Shown here: in pieces, positions 13,024 to 23,404 of the stretch
Layout: every line of letters begins with the position of its first letter
Numbering within the stretch: position 1 is the stretch's first letter
IMG/VR virus record: IMGVR_UViG_3300045988_113752
Coordinates: 1 to 24,654 of that record
Length of the DNA: 24,654 nucleotides
Direction: 5' to 3' (one strand)
From: a virus
Lineage: Duplodnaviria > Heunggongvirae > Uroviricota > Caudoviricetes
The notes under the pieces: model-generated
Seen by the model: the letters and a program-made list of their open reading frames with translations, nothing else
The model's database searches: none
What the model was told of the DNA's origin: nothing
Made by a program: the position numbers and the translations under genes

Positions 13024-13455
13024 CTATTCAGGTATTTCAATTCCAAAACCATCTGCATCCCATGAGTTTTCACAGATGATGTAACCTAGTTCATTGAGCT
13101 TATTAAATGTTTTTTCAAAGATGATCTGGTAATCATTATCTGCAAGTGATTCCAGTTCAAGGTCATTAAGGTTTATATAAAAACTTGTATGTCCAAGTGT
13201 TATTTTCTTATTAATTTCATTAAAGGTTCTTTTGAAAATAATATTTGATATTTCATGTCGTGCATTGTTTGCAATGATTTTTGCTTCATAAGCAGAAATT
13301 ACGTCATCTTCATGAATATCTTTCAGAAAACTGGTGTCAAGACGTTGTACTATTTCAGCGTTCATTGATCGCTTATTGGCTTTTGCAGAAATTTCTATTT
13401 TTTCTTTTACTTCGACGGGAAGTCTGATCCTTAGTTGTGGATCTTCTCTGCTCAT
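13024..13455 (-). CDS. Mnt-like ribbon-helix-helix repressor with ~100-aa C-terminal extension
   Basis: N-terminus MSREDPQLRIRLPVEVKEKIEISAKANKRSMNAEIVQRL resembles P22 Mnt/Arc RHH domains as I recall them. Transcribed divergently from the Arc-like gene. Start chosen at the ATG giving MSRED; the track ORF starts 10 codons upstream. Confidence 0.55.
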   Translation of the reverse strand: MSREDPQLRIRLPVEVKEKIEISAKANKRSMNAEIVQRLDTSFLKDIHEDDVISAYEAKIIANNARHEISNIIFKRTFNEINKKITLGHTSFYINLNDLELESLADNDYQIIFEKTFNKLNELGYIICENSWDADGFGIEIPE

Positions 13456-13575
13456 GTTCTTCACCAAATATTGAGTTACTTGCAATGATTGAAGTATGCC
13501 TCACCGTGTGCTTGACATCAATGACGCACGGTGTGACAATTATTTTGCCCCACGGTGGGGCTAAGGAGATATGAA
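13456..13575. promoter_or_regulatory. Divergent promoter/operator region between the Mnt-like and Arc-like genes
   Basis: TTGACA at 13512-13517 with a weak -10 (gacaat) 17 nt downstream on the plus strand. Inverted half-sites CACCGTG (13502-13508) and CACGGTG (13527-13533) flank the -35; a third CACGGTG lies at 13551-13557. Confidence 0.45.
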
Positions 13576-13743
13576 ATGCAAAAAGCAAAAGAGATGTGTC
13601 AACGACGAGTTCGTTTTCCGGACGATGTGAAGTTAGCTATTGAAAGAAATGGCGAAAAAGAATGCCGAAAGTTCAATACAGAGATTATCTATCAGCTGAG
13701 GAAAGTGTATGGACTCACTGGTGAGAAGAATAGCGTGGCATAA
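13576..13743 (+). CDS. Arc-like ribbon-helix-helix repressor
   Basis: 55 aa from ATG 13576, with taaggag 8 nt upstream. RVRFPDDVKLAIERNGEKECRKFNTEIIYQLRKVY resembles P22 Arc. Directly upstream of the antirepressor gene. Confidence 0.6.
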   Translation: MQKAKEMCQRRVRFPDDVKLAIERNGEKECRKFNTEIIYQLRKVYGLTGEKNSVA

Positions 13744-13814
13744 AACAGCGAAGCCCCACGGTGGCCAGACCGTCAGGGCTTCAGTATCGTAAAACTACGT
13801 ATAGGAATTAACGA
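13742..13814 (-). ncRNA. Candidate sar-like antisense RNA covering the antirepressor RBS/start
   Basis: Minus-strand promoter TTGATA-N17-TATACT (plus coordinates 13849-13844 and 13826-13821) fires antisense across the ant RBS (13802-13805) and ATG (13816). A strong hairpin (13750-13782) is followed on the minus strand by GCUGUUUUA. Predicted length is ~70 nt. Confidence 0.4.
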
Positions 13815-13815
13815 C

Positions 13816-14754
13816 ATGACGAGTATAGCAACAGCAGTATCTACTATCAACGTGCCATTCCACGGCGCAGAGCTTTATGTTGTCAATCACAACGGCGAAC
13901 CGTATACCCCAATGAAACCTATCGTTGAGGGAATGGGGCTAGACTGGAAATCTCAACATAAGAAGATTTCTCAACGCTTCTCGAAGGGTATGGTGGAAAT
14001 CACCATACCTTCTGCCGGTGGGGTGCAAGCCATGATTTGTATGGCTTTACGAAAATTGGCAGCTTGGTTGAACAGCATCAGCCCTAACAAAGTCCGCCCT
14101 GAAATCCGCGACAAGGTAATCCAGTATCAGGAAGAGTGTGACGATGTGCTCTACGAGTACTGGACTAAAGGCCATGTGGTTAACCCACGCAAAGCTAAAA
14201 AGGCGTTGCCGGGTAAAATAACAACTGAACAGCAGGAAGCCATTAAACAACTCGTCATGAGTCGCGGTCAGTCTCTGCCAAAAGAAAAACAGGCTAAGGC
14301 GATGATCACCATGTGGTCGTCACTGAAATCTCATTTTGGCTGTTCGTACAAAGAAATTGGTGAAGATCAATTTGCCGAAGCGTTGTCTCTTGTTGCTCGG
14401 GTTCCGCTTGAAGGGGAGTATCTCCCTGCTGGATCTGCATCAGAGAATGATGAAGTGGCAGTCAAGATGTTAGATGCGCTTCGTGAGGCAATTAAAACAC
14501 AGACAAAATGTTATGGTTATCCACTGAAGCCCGGCTACCGTAGCCTGATTCATTCGCCGTCTGGTGTTCTCGGCCTGACGGAGAACTCACTGCTGATGAA
14601 TCTGCTGAACCAGTTACAGGAAGACGGGCACGATGTATCGGGCGCGGCGGCGGAGCTGACCACCATGTTCTGCTACATCGTCGGTGTGAGCAAATGCCTG
14701 CGTGATATCCAGACGCACGCGGAATACATCAACGACAAGGCAGGGTTCTTCTGA
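13816..14754 (+). CDS. Antirepressor-like protein (Ant-type N-terminal region plus shared C-terminal domain)
   Basis: 312 aa immediately downstream of the Arc-like gene, in the immI-like arrangement. The C-terminal ~78 aa are identical to the C-terminus of the Bro-N protein at 16006..16698. Confidence 0.55.
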   Translation: MTSIATAVSTINVPFHGAELYVVNHNGEPYTPMKPIVEGMGLDWKSQHKKISQRFSKGMVEITIPSAGGVQAMICMALRKLAAWLNSISPNKVRPEIRDKVIQYQEECDDVLYEYWTKGHVVNPRKAKKALPGKITTEQQEAIKQLVMSRGQSLPKEKQAKAMITMWSSLKSHFGCSYKEIGEDQFAEALSLVARVPLEGEYLPAGSASENDEVAVKMLDALREAIKTQTKCYGYPLKPGYRSLIHSPSGVLGLTENSLLMNLLNQLQEDGHDVSGAAAELTTMFCYIVGVSKCLRDIQTHAEYINDKAGFF

Positions 14755-15082: not shown

Positions 15083-15631
15083 TTACTTTTCTTCAGGTTT
15101 GTTGTCTTCAGATTTCTTCTTGATGCTTGGTTTTTGTCTAAGAACGAAAATACCAGCCACTGCAACAACTGTACCGATCACTGTGCCAGCTAGAACTTCA
15201 TGACCTGTTAAACCTAATAATGTTGCACAAGCTACTGTAAAAATAGTTGCACTCAGGCCAAACCACTGCCCACGTTTATCTCTATTAATAGCCCCGTCAA
15301 GTGCCTTTTCCTCCATTTTCTGGCGGTGAGCAAACTCCTTCTCCGTCAGCTGGAAGATGCGTTCGGGGGCATCAGGTAAAATATCCTGATACCCGCGAAG
15401 CAGATAGGGGGGAGGAAGCGGACCCTGAAACGCATGGTGAGCGACAACTATCTCCTGAATTTCAGGGCGATCAAGAACTCTTGTGAAGGCATCTGGGTGT
15501 TGAATGATCTCGTTACTTAGCCCTTCCTCAACTTCCTCGAACTCAGTTTCTTCGTTATCACTTGGTTGCCCAATAGATTTTTGCATATTTGTCGAAGGAC
15601 ATTCCTTTAGCTTCTGGTTTTCCTCTTGCAT
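15083..15631 (-). CDS. Membrane protein with acidic N-terminus and two C-terminal TM helices (DUF2335-like by memory)
   Basis: 182-aa ORF with aggga upstream. Contains a PPPYLLRGYQDILPDAPERIF motif and two hydrophobic helices near the C-terminus. Its 5' end overlaps the upstream gene by 74 nt in another frame. Confidence 0.45.
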   Translation of the reverse strand: MQEENQKLKECPSTNMQKSIGQPSDNEETEFEEVEEGLSNEIIQHPDAFTRVLDRPEIQEIVVAHHAFQGPLPPPYLLRGYQDILPDAPERIFQLTEKEFAHRQKMEEKALDGAINRDKRGQWFGLSATIFTVACATLLGLTGHEVLAGTVIGTVVAVAGIFVLRQKPSIKKKSEDNKPEEK

Positions 15632-15987: not shown

Positions 15988-16240
15988 TCCCTGTGCCGCC
16001 GCCCGTCAGAAGAACCCTGCTTTGTCGTTGATGTACTCCGCGTGCGTCTGGATATCACGCAGGCATTTGCTCACACCGACGATGTAGCAGAACATGGTGG
16101 TCAACTCCGCCGCCGCGCCCGATACGTCGTGCCCGTCTTCCTGTAACTGGTTTAGCAGATTCATCAGCAGTGAGTTCTCCGTCAGGCCGAGAACACCAGA
16201 CGGCGAATGAATCAGGCTGCGGTAGCCGGGCTTCAGTGGG
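15988..16240. repeat. Inverted repeat, right copy (partner of 14521..14774)
   Basis: Reverse complement matches the left copy at ~97%. It encodes the C-terminal 78 aa of the Bro-N antirepressor. Confidence 0.8.
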
Positions 16241-16698
16241 GCGCTGTAGGTTTTGTTCTCTACCTTCATTGCCTGCATCACTGCTGATGCTGTGGCGTTG
16301 GCTACCTGGTCGGCAACCATCTTTATGCGTTCTTCCTGCGGGAGCGAGTTTTTAATGTAACTTCCGGTGCGGCGGATCTGAGGAAGAACCTCACCTGTAA
16401 CCCATTCAAGAAATCTGAATGCTCTCGTTCCCTCAGTCATTGCCTCTTTGCAACGCAGAATAAGGATGTAGAGACCTGATTCTGAAACGATGGATAGTTC
16501 TTGTATTCCACCAGGGGTCTGTATTGAATACAGCCCCTTTTTGTTCCAGCCTTTTTTATCAAGTTTTCTCGCTTGTGTAACATCAATATTCAAAGCATTG
16601 CACACATCTTTGGTGACAAACCAAGGTTCTCCGTCAATCATGAACATACGGATCTGGCAGGATGACTCAAAGGAAAAGATGGAAGGTTTGGTATTCAT
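16006..16698 (-). CDS. Bro-N domain antirepressor with shared C-terminal domain
   Basis: Start chosen at ATG 16698 (AAGGTGA 5 nt upstream), giving MNTKPSIFSFESSCQIRMFMIDGEPWFVTKDVCNALNI, a Bro-N/antirepressor N-terminal signature. The C-terminus is identical to the Ant at 13816..14754. Confidence 0.65.
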   Translation of the reverse strand: MNTKPSIFSFESSCQIRMFMIDGEPWFVTKDVCNALNIDVTQARKLDKKGWNKKGLYSIQTPGGIQELSIVSESGLYILILRCKEAMTEGTRAFRFLEWVTGEVLPQIRRTGSYIKNSLPQEERIKMVADQVANATASAVMQAMKVENKTYSAPLKPGYRSLIHSPSGVLGLTENSLLMNLLNQLQEDGHDVSGAAAELTTMFCYIVGVSKCLRDIQTHAEYINDKAGFF

Positions 16699-17011
16699 AG
16701 CGATCACCTTTGTAGTTAGGTTAATCACCACCGCTGAGACCAATCAGATGGTGGTGAACTGTGCAGAGTTGGTCTTACCGGCTACAAAGGAACCCGGCGC
16801 ACCTTTCGGTGCCCCCACACAGCCCACCATAGAATAGGTGCGCTTTACACATAAAAAAACCGCTTATGCGGCATATGTGCCTCTGTAGTAATCCGGGAGA
16901 CCAATCCCGGCACTGGATTTTGCCAGTGCCCGATTACTATGGCACAAGAGGAGTGCAATGTAAATTTACCGAAAAGGTAAATATAAGCACTCCTATTGGT
17001 AATTTCAAAAC

Positions 17012-17465: not shown

Positions 17466-19766
17466 ATGACGGTCTCAACCGAAGTTGACCACAACGAATA
17501 CACAGGTAACGGCGTTACGACATCATTTCCGTATACCTTCCGTATTTTCAAAAAATCCGACCTGGTTGTTCAGGTGTCTGACCTTAACGGTAACGTTACA
17601 AAACTAGTGCTGGATGCTGGTTATACGGTAACAGGGGCGGGAACTTATAGTGGCGGTGCAGTGGTTCTTCCGTCGCCGCTTGCTGCTGGCTGGCGAATCA
17701 CGATAGAGCGTGTGCTTGATGTGGTGCAGGAGACTGATCTTCGCAATCAGGGAAAATTTTTCCCCGAAGTTCATGAGGATGCATTTGACTACCTGACGAT
17801 GCTGATCCAGCGATGTTTTGGGTGGTTCAGACGTGCATTGATGAAACCATCTTTGCTTGCAAAATATTACGATGCAAAGCAAAACAGAATATCTAACCTT
17901 GCCGATCCATCACTTGAGCAGGACGCTGTAAATAATCGCTCAATGCGTAATTATGTCGATGCTGCAATCGCCGGAGTTATTGGTGGTTTTGGTTGGTTTA
18001 TTCAGTATGGTTCTGGAGCAGTATACCGAACGTTCCAGGATAAGATGAGAGACACCGTTAGTGTTCGCGATTTTGGGGCAAAAGGCGATGGTATAACAGA
18101 TGATACATCTGCATTGATTCTGGCTGCAGAATATGCACGAGAATCATCCAGAACATTACGAGCGGAAGGTAATTTTATTATTACGGAGACATTAAATCTT
18201 CGTAATGTCAGCCTCGAAATGACCAATGCTGTTTTTACCATATCCCACTCAGGGATAGGGGTATTGCTTGGCGGGAATGCATCAAACCCTAACAACCCAA
18301 GACAAAACTTCGGAACGATTATCAGAAATTCTGGTATTTCATCTGAAACGACACCGGATATTCGTATTATCGGGGCAAAAGGGCAGCATATTAACATTGA
18401 GCGTTGCGACTACTTACAGTTATATGCAAACTCTGATGATTCAGTATATGAAACAGATTATTCTATAGCCTACTCAACCTTTAACCTGAAAAAGGTCGAT
18501 ACAATTCATTTTCTTGGTGTAGTTAGAGGTTGGATAAACGAAAACAAGTTTTACCTAAACAGGACAAATAATGTGATTATTGCTGATAATCCGTATTCAC
18601 ATAATCACAACAAGTTTTTTGGTGGAACGATGGAGAATACTGGGGTTATTGACATTCAGCGTGGTAATAATAATCATTTTTACGGACTCCGTTTTGAGCG
18701 CAGACCAGACAACCCAGATGACACACAAAGAATTAATTTTGGTAGTTATACGTGGAATAATTCTGTTCAGGCATCATGGCTTAGCTTTTCTGCATATACC
18801 AATGAACCATATAACCCAAACAATCTTGTAACTGTCACTGATAATGGTAATGGAAATGCTGTATATCATATTCAGGAAGAACTAACTAATGAAGTGTCGC
18901 TTTTTTCAGTGAGTGAGAAAACGCCATTTTTATCAAGCGTTAATATGGGAAGTTCAGATACACCTGATTATGTTACAGATGTAAAAAGTGTGCGAAATTT
19001 AATTCATCTTGTTAATGGTAGTTTTGCTATTGGACGTAACTTCAGGACAATTTGGGAATCAGGTGATATAAGCGTCAGGAATGGCGATGTGTTTGCATTT
19101 ACTTCTGATGTCAGCGCATTCCGCATAAGGGTTTATGGAATTGATGAGAATGGCAGTGTTATTACAAATGAGCCTGAAGGGATTGGTTTTCCAGGGGCTT
19201 CATGGGATGATGAAAACAGTCGTTTTACTACCCAGTCTAACATCGGTAATGCAAAGTTTAGGATAACCGACAAAGGAGGAGTAAAATCAATAAGGGTTGT
19301 CATTCTGTCGGGTGGTAATACATCTGGAATTACCTTCAAATATATCAGATTTACCGGAAGATATTATAAGGATAGTTCTGCGTATCCTCGAAGAAATATG
19401 GATGATCATAATATCCACAGGTCTGGTGCTGTGATGTTTAATTCATCACTTGATGTCAAAATGGAAAATATAGCATCAGGTGTTACCTGTTATGTAAAAG
19501 ATGCATCTGATGTTAAGGTTAATATATTAAGAAATAGATACGTTGTTAAATCGGTGTCCGGGAATACTATATATGTGCGTAACCAGGATGAAATTTCATA
19601 TTCTGGTCCTTATGATGACTTTAAGGTTGCATATACTAGCGGGGCAAAAAATATGATTTCTGATGTTTCAGGAATTTCATCTAATGCAATAAAGTTATCA
19701 GGTAGTGTTCCTTCTGAAATATCAGAAGGAAGCAATATTGATTTGATTAAAATATTAACGAAGTAG
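17466..19766 (+). CDS. Tailspike protein: gp17-like N-terminal anchor plus pectate-lyase-type beta-helix depolymerase domain
   Basis: 766 aa with GGAG RBS. The N-terminal ~150 aa follow the pattern of T7 gp17-type tail fibre N-termini. The central DFGAKGDGITDDTSAL is the hallmark of pectate-lyase-fold tailspikes. The C-terminal half is AT-rich. Confidence 0.8.
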   Translation: MTVSTEVDHNEYTGNGVTTSFPYTFRIFKKSDLVVQVSDLNGNVTKLVLDAGYTVTGAGTYSGGAVVLPSPLAAGWRITIERVLDVVQETDLRNQGKFFPEVHEDAFDYLTMLIQRCFGWFRRALMKPSLLAKYYDAKQNRISNLADPSLEQDAVNNRSMRNYVDAAIAGVIGGFGWFIQYGSGAVYRTFQDKMRDTVSVRDFGAKGDGITDDTSALILAAEYARESSRTLRAEGNFIITETLNLRNVSLEMTNAVFTISHSGIGVLLGGNASNPNNPRQNFGTIIRNSGISSETTPDIRIIGAKGQHINIERCDYLQLYANSDDSVYETDYSIAYSTFNLKKVDTIHFLGVVRGWINENKFYLNRTNNVIIADNPYSHNHNKFFGGTMENTGVIDIQRGNNNHFYGLRFERRPDNPDDTQRINFGSYTWNNSVQASWLSFSAYTNEPYNPNNLVTVTDNGNGNAVYHIQEELTNEVSLFSVSEKTPFLSSVNMGSSDTPDYVTDVKSVRNLIHLVNGSFAIGRNFRTIWESGDISVRNGDVFAFTSDVSAFRIRVYGIDENGSVITNEPEGIGFPGASWDDENSRFTTQSNIGNAKFRITDKGGVKSIRVVILSGGNTSGITFKYIRFTGRYYKDSSAYPRRNMDDHNIHRSGAVMFNSSLDVKMENIASGVTCYVKDASDVKVNILRNRYVVKSVSGNTIYVRNQDEISYSGPYDDFKVAYTSGAKNMISDVSGISSNAIKLSGSVPSEISEGSNIDLIKILTK

Positions 19767-19776
19767 GATTAAATGC

Positions 19777-20091
19777 ATGGAATATAGAACCGGACATTTT
19801 ATTGCAATGGATATAACACCTTTCCTTCATGCGCTTTGTGCTGTGGCCGCACAGATACTGATTGGCCTTTTTACCGGAAACTGGGCTTACGGAGCGATAG
19901 CTGGTTGTACGTTCTTCATTGCGCGTGAACACACCCAGGCAGAATATCGCTGGATTGAAATGTTCGGGCATGGCAAGCGTATGAATATGCCGTGGTGGGG
20001 CGGTTTTGATCCGCGCGTATGGGATGTTGGAAGCCTGTTTGACTTTGTTGTTCCTGTTACTGTTTGTTTTGGTGTTTATTTCTATATTTGA
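19777..20091 (+). CDS. Small hydrophobic membrane protein (hypothetical)
   Basis: 104 aa with aggat 8 nt upstream, starting 11 nt after the tailspike stop. Two to three predicted TM segments and a Trp-rich motif (MPWWGGFDPRVWD). Confidence 0.5.
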   Translation: MEYRTGHFIAMDITPFLHALCAVAAQILIGLFTGNWAYGAIAGCTFFIAREHTQAEYRWIEMFGHGKRMNMPWWGGFDPRVWDVGSLFDFVVPVTVCFGVYFYI

Positions 20092-20313
20092 CTGCTACCG
20101 CGCCATCAAATGGCGCGGAATTCAACTAAGCCTCTATATTTTAAATCATTTCTGTACTGCAATCTCTTCAGAGTTATGTAAAAGGCAAGCCTTATTATCG
20201 ACATGAAAGGAAGGGGATTGACAATGCATGGGTAACAAAAAACCATAAATGGTTTATCATGCGTAATGCCTTTACTATTCAGGAGGTAGTTATGCATATA
20301 AACGGTGGAAAAC

Positions 20314-20718
20314 ATGTCAGCTCAACTAACCAGTGAAACTTTAAATCAGTGGCTTAGCATGAGTTCTCTGGCGGCGGTGATAGCAGGAGTTCCTCCTGAG
20401 GTTGCTTTGGGGGCTTTGGCTGGGGCGGTAATTTTTGTTACCTCTGCGGTAGAGTATCCTATTCGTCGTCGTGTACTCTTGTCGATGCTTAGCTTTCTCT
20501 GCGGCCTTCTTTTTTATAAACCAGCAGCATCAATTCTTATCGGCATAGCCAGCCTGATCCCTACCATCACGCAGGACTCTTTTGAAAAAGGGATTGTTTT
20601 CTCAGCTGGCGCATTCGTGTCAGCAATTGTTGCTGTGCGTATTGGTATATGGCTCTATCACCGTTCCGATAATCCACGCGAGTTAATTCCGGGGAGAAAA
20701 GACGATGGTAACGCATGA
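20314..20718 (+). CDS. Multi-TM membrane protein, first gene of lysis cassette (holin/antiholin candidate)
   Basis: Four hydrophobic segments. The track ORF starts at GTG 20305; ATG 20314 is preferred. Its end overlaps the start of the next membrane-protein gene. Confidence 0.45.
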   Translation: MSAQLTSETLNQWLSMSSLAAVIAGVPPEVALGALAGAVIFVTSAVEYPIRRRVLLSMLSFLCGLLFYKPAASILIGIASLIPTITQDSFEKGIVFSAGAFVSAIVAVRIGIWLYHRSDNPRELIPGRKDDGNA

Positions 20719-21013
20719 GTTTTTTTTGCTTATCACCAATGCAGTTATTTGTACTGGCATAGCAATTCGCGTTGTCACATTCCGGCGTAACGGCTCTCAA
20801 CATCGAAGATGGGGAGGGTGGCTTGCTTATTTCCTTATTGTTGCTGCGGCCAGTATTCCTGTTCGTGTCGTCTATGCAATCTGGTTACGCACGCCAATGG
20901 CTGTGGATTTATCTGAGGTCATTATCAACGCTGTCATGCTTGCCGCGGTTATTAAAACACGCGGTAACGTTGTTCAGATTTTCAAAATATCGAGGTCTAA
21001 ACATGGAGATTAA
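20705..21013 (+). CDS. Holin (putative, three TM segments)
   Basis: 102 aa with GGAG RBS, three hydrophobic helices and a charged C-terminus. Overlaps the endolysin start. Confidence 0.55.
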
Positions 21014-21632
21014 ACAATTCCAGCGAGCTGCTGGTATTAGCGAGGCGCTGGCCGCTCGCTGGTTCTCGCATATAACTTCTGCGATGAAAGAGTTTGGTAT
21101 CAGCAAGGCAGAAGATCAGGCAATGTTTATTGCTCAAGTTGGGCATGAGTCTGGGGGGTTCACCAGGTTGCAGGAGAATTTCAACTACAGCGTTACCGGA
21201 CTGGTGAGCTTTGTCCGGACTGGACGCCTCACCCAGGGACAGGCTAATGCACTGGGGCGCCGCGTTGGTGAACCACCATTGCCACTTGAGCGCCAGCGCG
21301 CGATCGCAAATCTGGTATACAGCAAACGCATGGGTAACAATGCTCCCGGCGATGGCTGGAATTACCGTGGGCGCGGGCTTATCCAGATTACCGGTTTGAA
21401 TAACTATCGTGACTGCGGAAACGGTCTGAAAGTTGACCTGCTGGAGAATCCTGAACTGCTGGCACAGGACGAATACGCGGCTCGTAGCGCGGCCTGGTTC
21501 TTCTCCAGCAAAGGCTGCATGAAGTATACCGGAGATATTGTACGTGTAACTCTGATTATCAATGGTGGCAGGAACGGCATCGACGACCGGCGCGCGCGAT
21601 ACATCACTGCCAGTAAGGTGCTGGCGGTATGA
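21003..21632 (+). CDS. Endolysin, glycoside hydrolase family 19 (chitinase-like lysozyme)
   Basis: Internal ATG of track ORF 20772..21632. [12 protein letters not shown] and [16 protein letters not shown] match the GH19 catalytic signature regions. Confidence 0.8.
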
Positions 21633-22111
21633 TCTGGGCATTCGCAAAAGCATACTGGAAACAGTTGGTTATCATGGCGATGCTTGCTGTTCTGGTCATA
21701 TCAGGAGTTGTCGCCTGGAATGCACACGGCAGTCGCCAGTACGATGCCGGGTATGCTCAGGCGGAAGAAGACCGCAAAGCCGAAGAAGACAAAGTTCGTC
21801 AGCACTACGAACAGGAGAAATCGATCAATGAACGTGAAGCGCAGCAGAGGATCGACCAGGCGCGCAATGATGCTCTTGATGCTGCCGCTCGCGCTGGCCG
21901 GTTGCAGCAACAGCTCGTTGCCATCCGTGAGCAGCTCAGGCACTATAACGCCATTGTCGGCGCTGGGACGTCAGCCGCAGACACCGGAGTTTTGCTTGCC
22001 GACGTGCTCAGTAAATCTCTCGAGAGAAACAGACAACTGGCAGAGTATGCTGACCGGGCAGCCGAAGCCGGAAGAGTCTGTGAAAAACAGTACGACACCC
22101 TGACCAGATAG
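21629..22111 (+). CDS. Rz-like i-spanin
   Basis: Start overlaps the endolysin stop (ATGA). N-terminal TM helix followed by a charged, coiled-coil-like periplasmic domain. Confidence 0.7.
21828..22103 (+). CDS. Rz1-like o-spanin lipoprotein, embedded in Rz in the +1 frame
   Basis: [26 protein letters not shown] has a basic n-region, hydrophobic core and LAGC lipobox. GGAG lies 10 nt upstream. The mature part is Pro/Ser-rich. Confidence 0.6.
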   Translation: MNVKRSRGSTRRAMMLLMLPLALAGCSNSSLPSVSSSGTITPLSALGRQPQTPEFCLPTCSVNLSRETDNWQSMLTGQPKPEESVKNSTTP

Positions 22112-22262: not shown

Positions 22263-22292
22263 AAAACCCTCTGTTACTACAGAGGGTTTTTT
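22263..22292. terminator. Bidirectional intrinsic terminator (AAAA-CCCTCTG-ttacta-CAGAGGG-TTTTTT)
   Basis: Perfect 7-bp stem flanked by an A-run and a T-run, between convergent genes. Confidence 0.7.
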
Positions 22293-22330: not shown

Positions 22331-22870
22331 TTAATTAAACCAGCTGTCCGATTTGTTCTCTTCTGCTTTGCCCACGCTTTTCATCAGATCGCGACCGCCT
22401 TCAGTCATATTTCTGTTGGCGTCAGCTTCAGATTGCACCACATCGGTTTGCGCAGCTTTGTGCTTCAGTTCCTGATCGATAAATTCGTTTTCTCGCTTAA
22501 CGCGGGCTTCTTCTTTTGCCAGCGCCAGTTTTTGTTTCTGAATCTCTAAGCTGTGTAGCTCATCTTCATAACTTTGATCGCGTTTTTTGTCCGCAGAGGC
22601 TTCGGCGTCCAGTTTATCCTGACGAGCTTTCTTATTTGCTGCTGCCGTTGCCGCTCTTTTGTTAGCGGCGGCCTGGGCATTTGCGCGACGTTGCTTCTCT
22701 TGCTGGATTTCCCTGTTGCGCTCCGCGACCCATTCGTCATGCTGCCTTTGCTCTTCATTTTTACCTTGCTGTTCAGCTTCTGCTACAGCAGAGAGTTGAT
22801 CCTGCAATGATGAGGCGATAGCCGGATAGCTTAAGGAGGCCAAGATGGCGCAAAGAAAAACTTTCTTCAT
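22331..22870 (-). CDS. yfgI: Periplasmic coiled-coil protein, YfgI-like (host gene)
   Basis: 179 aa with signal peptide MKKVFLCAILASLSYPAIA, then a highly charged Gln/Ala/Lys/Glu-rich sequence. Length and neighbourhood match E. coli yfgI as recalled. Confidence 0.5.
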   Translation of the reverse strand: MKKVFLCAILASLSYPAIASSLQDQLSAVAEAEQQGKNEEQRQHDEWVAERNREIQQEKQRRANAQAAANKRAATAAANKKARQDKLDAEASADKKRDQSYEDELHSLEIQKQKLALAKEEARVKRENEFIDQELKHKAAQTDVVQSEADANRNMTEGGRDLMKSVGKAEENKSDSWFN

Positions 22871-22885
22871 GACTCCTCCTGATTA

Positions 22886-23404
22886 TTAGCTCTTTTCAGG
22901 ACATTTAGTATTTGGCTGAATACGCGTTTCGTTATACGTTGTGGTAATAACAACGGCTAAACCTGTCGTAAACTGGCACTCTTTACCCACCTGGGTAGAG
23001 GTATACACTTTGGTGCCTTCCTTATATGTTAAAGAAACACCTTCCACTAAGGTTTTATCATTCACCATAGAACCCGCTGCCGCGCCTACAGCTCCGCCGC
23101 CAACTGCCCCTGCCGTCGTTCCGGAATTGCTGCCAGAACCGACGTTGTGGCCGATAACACCGCCAGCGACTGCGCCAATAAGCGCGCCGAAGGCTTGTGC
23201 GTTCCGTTTATTTTGGGAGTTGTCTACGGCAACTTTTGCGGGAAGAATGGAAATAATATTAACGGTTTTAGTTTCTTGTTTGGTATTCAGTTGATCGGTT
23301 TGATAAACATCGGCGGCATGATCGTCAGCATTTGACTGGCATCCTGCCAGAGTGAATGACGCTAACATTGCCACAGGCAGAAGACATTTTTTAAATTTCA
23401 TCAC
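22886..23404 (-). CDS. yfgH: Outer-membrane lipoprotein with glycine-zipper region, YfgH-like (host gene)
   Basis: 172 aa with LAGC lipobox and a Gly/Ala-rich segment (GALIGAVAGGVIGHNVG...GAVGGGAVGAAAG), similar in architecture to SlyB/Pcp-type lipoproteins. Confidence 0.5.
   Translation of the reverse strand: MMKFKKCLLPVAMLASFTLAGCQSNADDHAADVYQTDQLNTKQETKTVNIISILPAKVAVDNSQNKRNAQAFGALIGAVAGGVIGHNVGSGSNSGTTAGAVGGGAVGAAAGSMVNDKTLVEGVSLTYKEGTKVYTSTQVGKECQFTTGLAVVITTTYNETRIQPNTKCPEKS

Follow-up and report, generated by a model that had tools for sequence, protein, structure and literature searches.

What does a gene for a small membrane protein do between a tailspike gene and a lysis cassette, and does it change the receptor that the tailspike recognises? 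The question arises from a stretch of DNA of 24,654 nucleotides (nt), here called the window, which comprises positions 1 to 24,654 of the IMG/VR virus record IMGVR_UViG_3300045988_113752. The window represents a Uetakevirus prophage of Escherichia coli, epsilon15-like and adjoining yfgI/yfgH, and the gene in question is an open reading frame (ORF) on its plus strand at 19777..20091. An earlier sequence-only reading of this locus had put forward O-antigen modification or superinfection exclusion, functions that would alter the receptor seen by the tailspike. The reading favoured here, tentatively, is a different one: the gene may be a phage-borne copy of a widespread proteobacterial inner-membrane protein of about 95-100 amino acids (aa), the family phrog_1443, derived from the host and co-expressed with the late tail genes. 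On this tentative reading its product is neither a serotype-converting enzyme nor a holin.

The ORF of 104 aa with its ATG start is confirmed in the window, and its conserved part is a 94-aa protein that begins at a second ATG (19807). DNA similarity to other phages sets in only at 19806-19810, and an equivalent 285-bp coding sequence (CDS) from 19807 is called by PGAP in an E. coli genome 98.6% identical to the window. The Met-Asp that matches 19807 is the N-terminus of most homologues, usually with a good Shine-Dalgarno sequence just 5' of it. Within the window the better Shine-Dalgarno sequence, AGGA 8 nt 5' of the ATG, belongs to 19777, while that of the ATG at 19807 is weak. Given this, and given that the 104-aa and the 94-aa versions are both on record as called proteins, the start may be either 19777 or 19807. 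The gene evolves under purifying selection, with a ratio of nonsynonymous to synonymous substitution rates (dN/dS) of 0.15-0.24 against its E. coli homologues.

Over its full length the protein belongs to phrog_1443 (E=3.8e-55; ORF residues 11-104 on profile positions 1-94 of 97), a family that carries no functional annotation and for which the placeholder 'Ybl63' was the sole source name found. A word-indexed search returned 563 homologue clusters at 90% identity, every one labelled 'hypothetical', and an exhaustive profile search gave 438 representatives at 50% identity, stand-alone proteins of roughly 60-140 aa with no domain fusion among them. The E. coli protein is about 60% identical to its Aeromonas and Comamonas homologues. 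The Trp-rich motif noticed in the sequence-only reading is real and is better conserved than any other part of the protein (FIAREHTQAEYRWI..FG.GKR.NMPWWGGFD.R.W), being invariant in the 36 homologues of alignment A1, drawn from Escherichia, Aeromonas, Comamonas, Leclercia and others. A wider alignment, A2, finds H8, R40, E41, Q44, A45, E46, W72 and P83 invariant or almost so, W72 being invariant. The core motif of the family is H...(G/A)RE..QAEYRWI...G.R..MPW.GF..R.W...S.LD..P, every residue of which is present in the window protein.

Database searches place this sequence near nothing of known function. Searches of Pfam, NCBIfam, PADLOC and fold libraries with the protein gave no useful match, and no homology to transporters was found. 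The only Pfam line, to PhoR (E=0.089), was rejected as compositional, reflecting a transmembrane (TM) hairpin followed by a Trp/Arg-rich segment. A Pfam scan of 57 diverse family members produced scattered sub-threshold matches and nothing convincing, and the family profile matched no solved structure in a sequence search of the PDB. The phage phiv142-3, whose orf5 is a homologue, has been the subject of papers that dealt with orf6 and orf10; orf5 is missing from the list of serum-induced genes in those papers. GiPD474, a Gifsy defence gene that surfaced with the phiv142-3 literature, is an ATPase-domain protein unrelated to the one considered here.

Two to three TM segments had been proposed for the protein, and three are supported. 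An AlphaFold2 model (mean pLDDT 87) has helices at residues 4-23, 26-52 and 74-93, the last two joined by a loop (53-73), and the hydrophobic stretches of the sequence agree with TM1, TM2 and TM3 of that model. From the helices and the model an inner-membrane location is predicted; there is neither a lipobox nor a signal peptide. The chain ends with TM3 and lacks a charged C-terminal tail, the mean tail being 2.6-4.5 residues with 0.5-0.7 Lys/Arg. The gene divides as follows, all parts being on the plus strand.

19777..19806, plus strand: optional N-terminal extension MEYRTGHFIA (10 codons), conserved in no homologue.
19807..20091, plus strand: conserved CDS, 94 aa and stop, for a predicted three-helix inner-membrane protein of the phrog_1443 family.
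19816..19875, plus strand: helix 1, TM1, residues 4-23, holding the near-invariant His8 (AlphaFold2 and conservation).
19882..19962, plus strand: helix 2, residues 26-52, TM2 running into the juxtamembrane motif A-R-E-H-T-Q-A-E-Y-R-W-I (AlphaFold2 and alignments).
19987..20025, plus strand: Trp-rich loop M-P-W-W-G-G-F-D-P-R-V-W-D, residues 61-73 (alignments A1 and A2).
20026..20085, plus strand: helix 3, TM3, residues 74-93, opening with the conserved S-x-L-D...P motif (AlphaFold2 and alignment).

The loop carries 5.6 Lys/Arg residues against about 0.7 on the opposite side of the membrane, and by the positive-inside rule the protein would adopt an N-in/C-out topology in which the N-terminus and a conserved loop of 37 residues are cytoplasmic. 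His8 in TM1, Arg40, Glu41, Gln44 and Glu46 at the end of TM2 and Asp79 at the start of TM3 would then lie at one face of the membrane and, together with the amphipathic Trp-rich loop, could form a single polar site. Such a site might bind a ligand ubiquitous in proteobacteria, for example a divalent metal, the head group of a lipid or a conserved partner in the inner membrane; each of these candidates is far less probable than the overall reading.

In phages, the gene is the last of the receptor-binding-protein module and is co-oriented with the fibre or tailspike gene before it. A scan of viral contigs with a narrow alignment matched 433 IMG/VR contigs, from which 80 loci (L085-L164), all close E. 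coli relatives, were kept. A tail-fibre tip gene, a tail fibre gene, a post-stf ORF or a Uetakevirus tailspike gene lies directly upstream on the same strand in 77 of the 79 loci that have an upstream ORF, mostly with gaps of 9-45 nt. Homologues beside tailspike genes, for which the sequence-only reading had suggested a search, occur among these loci. Counted from 19807, the gap to the tailspike in the window is 40 nt. The gene usually abuts or overlaps the upstream stop codon, and in many lineages the gap is -16 to +4 nt.

The same position recurs in phages of very different build. Lambdoid siphoviruses of E. coli (phage 21, mEp460 and many Lambda-like isolates) have the gene after their side tail fibre genes, where it closes the tail-fibre cluster beside unrelated cargo, with no lysis gene in view, and the copy in REL606 (E. 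coli B) likewise stands behind a tail fibre gene. Prophages of Leclercia, Pantoea, Chelativorans (an alphaproteobacterium) and Desulfovibrio (a deltaproteobacterium) have a tail fibre, tailspike or tail protein gene upstream by PHROG assignment. In Comamonas and Acidovorax prophages the gene comes after the tail-tip and fibre genes, its start overlapping the upstream stop. In Halomonas phage phiHAP-1 it stands before the sheath gene and overlaps the stop codon of the gene for tail-fibre assembly, and fibre assembly genes of the P2 type also precede family members. Two cassettes of diversity-generating retroelements (DGRs) hold it between the variable protein and bAvd, a P22-like Aeromonas phage has a homologue inside its structural gene cluster, and the Aeromonas phages PS1, PS2, AVP1 and pAEv1810, of 235-240 kb, also encode homologues. 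Those of the Aeromonas phages, in which no integrase is in view, are true members of the family (E 1e-24 to 1e-29 against the family profile). What appears to be new about a gene already catalogued many times as 'hypothetical' is this picture of a pan-proteobacterial small membrane protein directly behind receptor-binding genes in all three tail types.

The protein is also independent of receptor specificity. Among E. coli Uetakevirus prophages at the yfgI site it is 89-98% identical, and the receptor-binding parts of the tailspikes beside it are unrelated. The gene can be classed with the accessory membrane genes that are linked to receptor-binding genes.

Some of these loci carry details of their own. 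The DGR loci L034 and L036 (4785-9787; Comamonas nitrativorans and Pigmentiphaga humi) have two bAvd genes and two reverse transcriptases, and the homologue separates the gene for the presumed variable protein from the first bAvd, which is an uncommon site for any gene in such a retroelement. In a Desulfovibrio metagenome-assembled genome (L069, 3112-6210), a 935-aa tailspike with an epsilon15-type N-terminal domain (phrog_13893, phrog_1640) is followed by the gene with a 0-nt gap, and from this arrangement the pairing of tailspike and membrane protein is present in a deltaproteobacterial prophage. Fourteen of the 80 IMG/VR contigs stop 6-12 nt past the stop codon of the gene; assemblies and provirus calls may break at this multi-copy sequence and thereby bias predictions of E. 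coli prophage boundaries.

Outside phages, the family has stand-alone chromosomal orthologues in conserved synteny, and Aeromonas, Leclercia and sphingomonads retain such copies by vertical inheritance. In five Aeromonas genomes of four species the order is polB...pirin, the gene, RIO1 on the minus strand and the lipid A acyltransferase genes. In five Leclercia genomes the gene is followed by a MetE-like gene and a urea-type ABC transporter, with an M3 peptidase upstream in four of the five. In sphingomonads it comes after ligA, or stands beside genes for PhyH, ftsZ, cyclophilin, cyclopropane-fatty-acid synthase or EF-hand proteins. ORFs in these neighbourhoods were called, in loci of high G+C, with a caller aware of G+C at third codon positions. 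No conserved operon partner of the chromosomal copies emerged, the alphaproteobacterial neighbourhoods included, and no endolysin gene was near them in the neighbourhoods examined. The gene is also frequent in E. coli, where 1905 of 5426 complete genomes (35%) have it, at a median of 2 and a maximum of 7 copies. In the decayed Qin-like prophage of REL606 it is intact beside tail pseudogenes.

Together, the strict position in phages and the vertically kept bacterial copies point to a general inner-membrane role that is worth carrying for phages. In the reading that we tentatively prefer, the gene, to judge from its packing, would be transcribed with the late tail genes and not from its own promoter in the lysogen; no promoter above background was found upstream of it in the window. 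The protein would act alone, as a host-derived auxiliary function conditioning the inner membrane late in infection.

Several points weigh against this reading. Its topology comes solely from the positive-inside rule, the geometry of its polar cluster is drawn from helix boundaries rather than coordinates, and late co-transcription is deduced from packing, at a locus where the gap to the tailspike is 40 nt. Literature searches by accession, PHROG identifier, FIG identifier and 'Ybl63' returned nothing relevant and no characterised homologue. That unrelated phages keep the gene strictly behind receptor-binding genes is a hint of a functional connection with adsorption, entry or lysis; a purely autonomous, host-like function leaves this position unexplained. 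Finally, the intact copy in a decayed prophage and the multiple copies in E. coli would fit a protective function expressed from the prophage.

The positional argument can be taken further. The family may be a near-universal companion of receptor-binding proteins that had so far escaped notice, host-derived and repeatedly fixed by podo-, sipho- and myoviruses of alpha- to deltaproteobacteria as the closely packed final gene of the fibre or tailspike module, that carries out a new late membrane step through the His/Glu/Asp/Arg site, an idea that we regard as unlikely though worth stating. The step would be envelope conditioning, control of entry or exit, or metal supply for fibre maturation.

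Equally doubtful, on present evidence, is that the protein provides superinfection exclusion at the inner membrane, blocking DNA entry in the manner of P22 SieA, T4 Imm or HK97 gp15, whether from a prophage or in the lytic cycle. Exclusion and receptor-blocking genes are often sited beside the receptor-binding gene, SieA, Cor and Llp being examples, and a small predicted inner-membrane protein adjoining such a gene is what this explanation calls for. SieA, Imm and gp15 are, like the protein considered here, single-gene inner-membrane proteins (a predicted location in the present case) encoded in or beside the tail and receptor-binding region of temperate phages. The gene is present on every copy of many co-resident prophages, at the copy numbers given above for E. 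coli, and it stays intact in the decayed REL606 prophage. Its independence of receptor type is what a block acting on the inner membrane, and not on the receptor, would lead one to expect. In this last respect it differs from Llp of T5 and Cor of phi80, N15 and T1, which are likewise linked to a receptor-binding gene and travel with it; those are outer-membrane lipoproteins directed at one receptor, FhuA, whereas the protein here has a predicted inner-membrane location and does not change with the receptor-binding domain. Against exclusion stand the negative PADLOC search and the undetected homology to SieA, Imm and gp15. Exclusion genes are normally narrow in distribution and fast-evolving, whereas this family is broader and more conserved, with about 60% identity across genera and vertically inherited residents in bacterial chromosomes. 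The way the gene is packed with late tail genes points to expression late in infection, not in the lysogen or early on, and a cytoplasmic loop, if such it is, would make no direct contact with the tail tip of an incoming phage.

Still less probable is an accessory role in lysis timing, in which the protein would be a holin, an antiholin or another membrane regulator of the downstream lysis cassette. It has the size (about 95 aa) and the three TM helices of a class I holin, and the holin genes of T7 (gp17.5) and T4 (t) come after tail-fibre genes. The gene also lies just 5' of the lysis cassette both in the window and in Comamonas, Acidovorax and Pantoea prophages. The relevant parts of the window are these.

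20098..20118, plus strand: G+C-rich hairpin with a 9-bp stem (CCGCGCCAU-CAA-AUGGCGCGG), from RNA folding, 7 nt past the stop codon of the gene.
20205..20313, plus strand: conserved upstream region of the lysis operon (alignment A3), with the perfect palindrome AACCATAAATGGTT; outside the gene module.
20314..22111, plus strand: complete lysis cassette of Phage_holin_8, Phage_holin_3_7, GH19 endolysin and Rz with Rz1.
20305/20314-20718, plus strand: Phage_holin_8 protein.
20705-21013, plus strand: Phage_holin_3_7 holin.
21003-21632, plus strand: GH19 endolysin.
21629-22111, plus strand: Rz, with Rz1 embedded.

The gene is separate from this conserved lysis module. An AT-rich spacer of about 220 bp before the lysis genes had been noted from the sequence, and its length is 213-222 bp at 37-42% GC, measured from 20092 up to the start codon of the holin gene (GTG 20305 or ATG 20314); 222 bp and two holin genes separate the gene from the endolysin gene. 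The 20205..20313 region, the roughly 100 bp before the first holin gene, is common to epsilon15, phiV10 and phiv142-3 and is a candidate regulatory site of the lysis operon. Epsilon15 and phiV10 have the same lysis gene order, the same cassette and the same conserved upstream region and lack the gene. The lysis module thus carries a conserved upstream region of its own, and it is complete in the absence of the gene. In otherwise syntenic phages the gene is absent from epsilon15 and phiV10 and present in phiv142-3, EC.W1-9 and the window prophage, as a transferred module of approximately 19806-20200 that comprises the gene and, as its 3' part, the 9-bp hairpin. Such presence and absence is one trait of a moron, an autonomous accessory gene cassette; of the promoter and terminator that would mark such a cassette, the window shows no promoter above background before the gene and the hairpin after it.

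The distribution of the gene elsewhere also speaks against a role in lysis. The prophages of Comamonas and Acidovorax (betaproteobacteria) encode their own holin after it, and in each the holin lies between the gene and the endolysin, which ruled out the gene as their sole holin. The lambdoid copies close the tail-fibre cluster, no lysis gene being in view. The protein matches no described holin family in Pfam, NCBIfam or PHROG; one of the 57 family members scanned has a weak Phage_holin_8 match (E=0.0036), and comparison by hhalign with both window holins gives a probability below 1%. Phage_holin_8 and Phage_holin_3_7 (the types of epsilon15 gp23/gp24) and lambda S are likewise small proteins with three hydrophobic helices from late-packed genes. 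The present family differs from them in a 37-residue loop that is highly conserved from alpha- to deltaproteobacteria, in its non-phage chromosomal orthologues and its want of consistent linkage to endolysin genes, and it lacks the charged C-terminal tail. That the protein might behave as a holin component, a result that the sequence-only reading had set against its own proposal, is thus unlikely, the cassette being complete without it in epsilon15 and phiV10.

The spacer itself has some structure. Intrinsic-terminator prediction did not pick out the hairpin at 20098..20118, which has no U tract; weak termination or stabilisation of the 3' end are possible roles. In phiv142-3 the loop differs, but a G-U pair in place of G-C preserves the stem. 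The whole spacer between the gene and the holin folds better than shuffled sequences (z = -3.0). A promoter-like GTAACA-17-TATCAT occurs in the conserved stretch before the first holin gene.

Very unlikely, in turn, is that the protein is a membrane helper for maturation of the tail fibre or tailspike, for example through supply of a metal ion. Some phage fibres bear iron at HxH motifs, and R-E-x-x-Q-A-E with the conserved His, Glu and Asp recalls the REXXE iron motifs of FTR1/EfeU, a resemblance that serves as a lead only. Such a helper would suit a gene that, in three tail morphotypes, keeps a very consistent position and is closely packed against the last gene for receptor binding or fibre assembly. 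Neighbours such as sitABCD in phage 21, the pirin gene in Aeromonas and PhyH in sphingomonads provide a lead that is circumstantial only, since metalloprotein genes are frequent neighbours by chance and homology to transporters was not found. Stand-alone chromosomal copies occur without phage genes, epsilon15 and phiV10 assemble related tailspikes without the protein, and the receptor-binding proteins that precede it have unrelated folds.

The remaining explanation, O-antigen or lipopolysaccharide (LPS) modification leading to serotype conversion, was the leading idea of the sequence-only reading, and the locus logic behind it holds. The tailspike gene and its product are these.

17466..19766, plus strand: tailspike, with an N-terminal part of about 165-270 aa common to epsilon15, phiV10 and phiv142-3 and a different C-terminal receptor-binding part.

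The N-terminus of this tailspike is 67-70% identical to its counterparts in epsilon15 and phiV10, and the prophage encodes a GP7-type capsid protein. The tailspike is a mosaic, with about 79% identity to phiv142-3 over residues 1-270 and about 70% to epsilon15 over residues 1-165; the remainder is unrelated to either, with a very low G+C content (32-37%), and a domain search gave only a weak pectate-lyase-like match to the tailspike. In these relatives seroconversion genes do adjoin the tailspike, as had been supposed: at the same locus, between tailspike and lysis genes, epsilon15 has gp21 (O-antigen ligase family) and gp22 (an alpha-polymerase inhibitor that is also a small membrane protein), and phiV10 has the O-acetyltransferase gene oac. 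However, gp21, gp22 and oac run opposite to the tailspike strand, a divergent arrangement that would permit their expression in the lysogen, whereas the present gene runs with it. BLASTP gave no alignment with gp22, and in Pfam no O-antigen ligase or polymerase, acyltransferase_3 or GtrA/B domain matched at a meaningful score, which leaves no GtrA/B, acyltransferase or Wzy family to assign.

An Aeromonas chromosomal copy lies near lipid A acyltransferase genes, though convergent with them, which favours a modifying role; we nevertheless consider that role highly improbable, for besides the strand and the gp22 and Pfam negatives the protein is unchanged beside unrelated tailspike specificities, stands behind J/Stf-type fibres for protein receptors and behind a DGR variable protein, and has members in large Aeromonas phages with no integrase in view and in sphingomonads (which are not known to make LPS), all of which argues against a function specific to an O-antigen type. 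For the window itself the outcome is negative, in that the gene is unfit for predicting serotype conversion or a tailspike-linked change of receptor.

The wider interest of the gene lies in its frequency and its range. It is carried by 35% of complete E. coli genomes, by REL606 and by 433 IMG/VR contigs, and it has no name, Pfam model or literature. Its position behind receptor-binding genes spans three tail types and hosts of four proteobacterial classes. Knowledge of its function would annotate thousands of 'hypothetical' genes and could uncover a novel membrane event late in infection.

Other elements of the window prophage are of a more incidental kind. An antirepressor gene of the Bro-N/Ant type lies on the minus strand at 16006-16743, and directly 5' of it, at 16747-16929 on the same strand, are Rfam matches to the C4 antisense RNA (78.6 bits) and the isrK RNA (74.7 bits); we take 16006-16929 to be the c4-ant immunity arrangement of the P1/P7 type, here in a Uetakevirus prophage. 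A module of the P22 immI type occupies 13027-14754, with an Arc-like repressor gene (13027-13485, minus strand), a sar antisense RNA (13747-13814, minus strand) and, completing it, a P22_AR_N antirepressor gene (13816-14754, plus strand). The prophage thus carries two antirepressor systems of different kinds, and an antisense RNA belongs to each. Between them, at 15086-15631 on the minus strand, a predicted membrane protein of DUF2335 is encoded, another uncharacterised accessory membrane gene. At the other end of the prophage, yfgI and yfgH (22331-23404) are chromosomal, which places the end of the prophage between 22111 and 22331. Between Rz and yfgI, at 22263-22290, lies the region's only canonical intrinsic terminator, with a 12-bp stem and a T run, and the junction of prophage and chromosome falls in this same 220-bp stretch.

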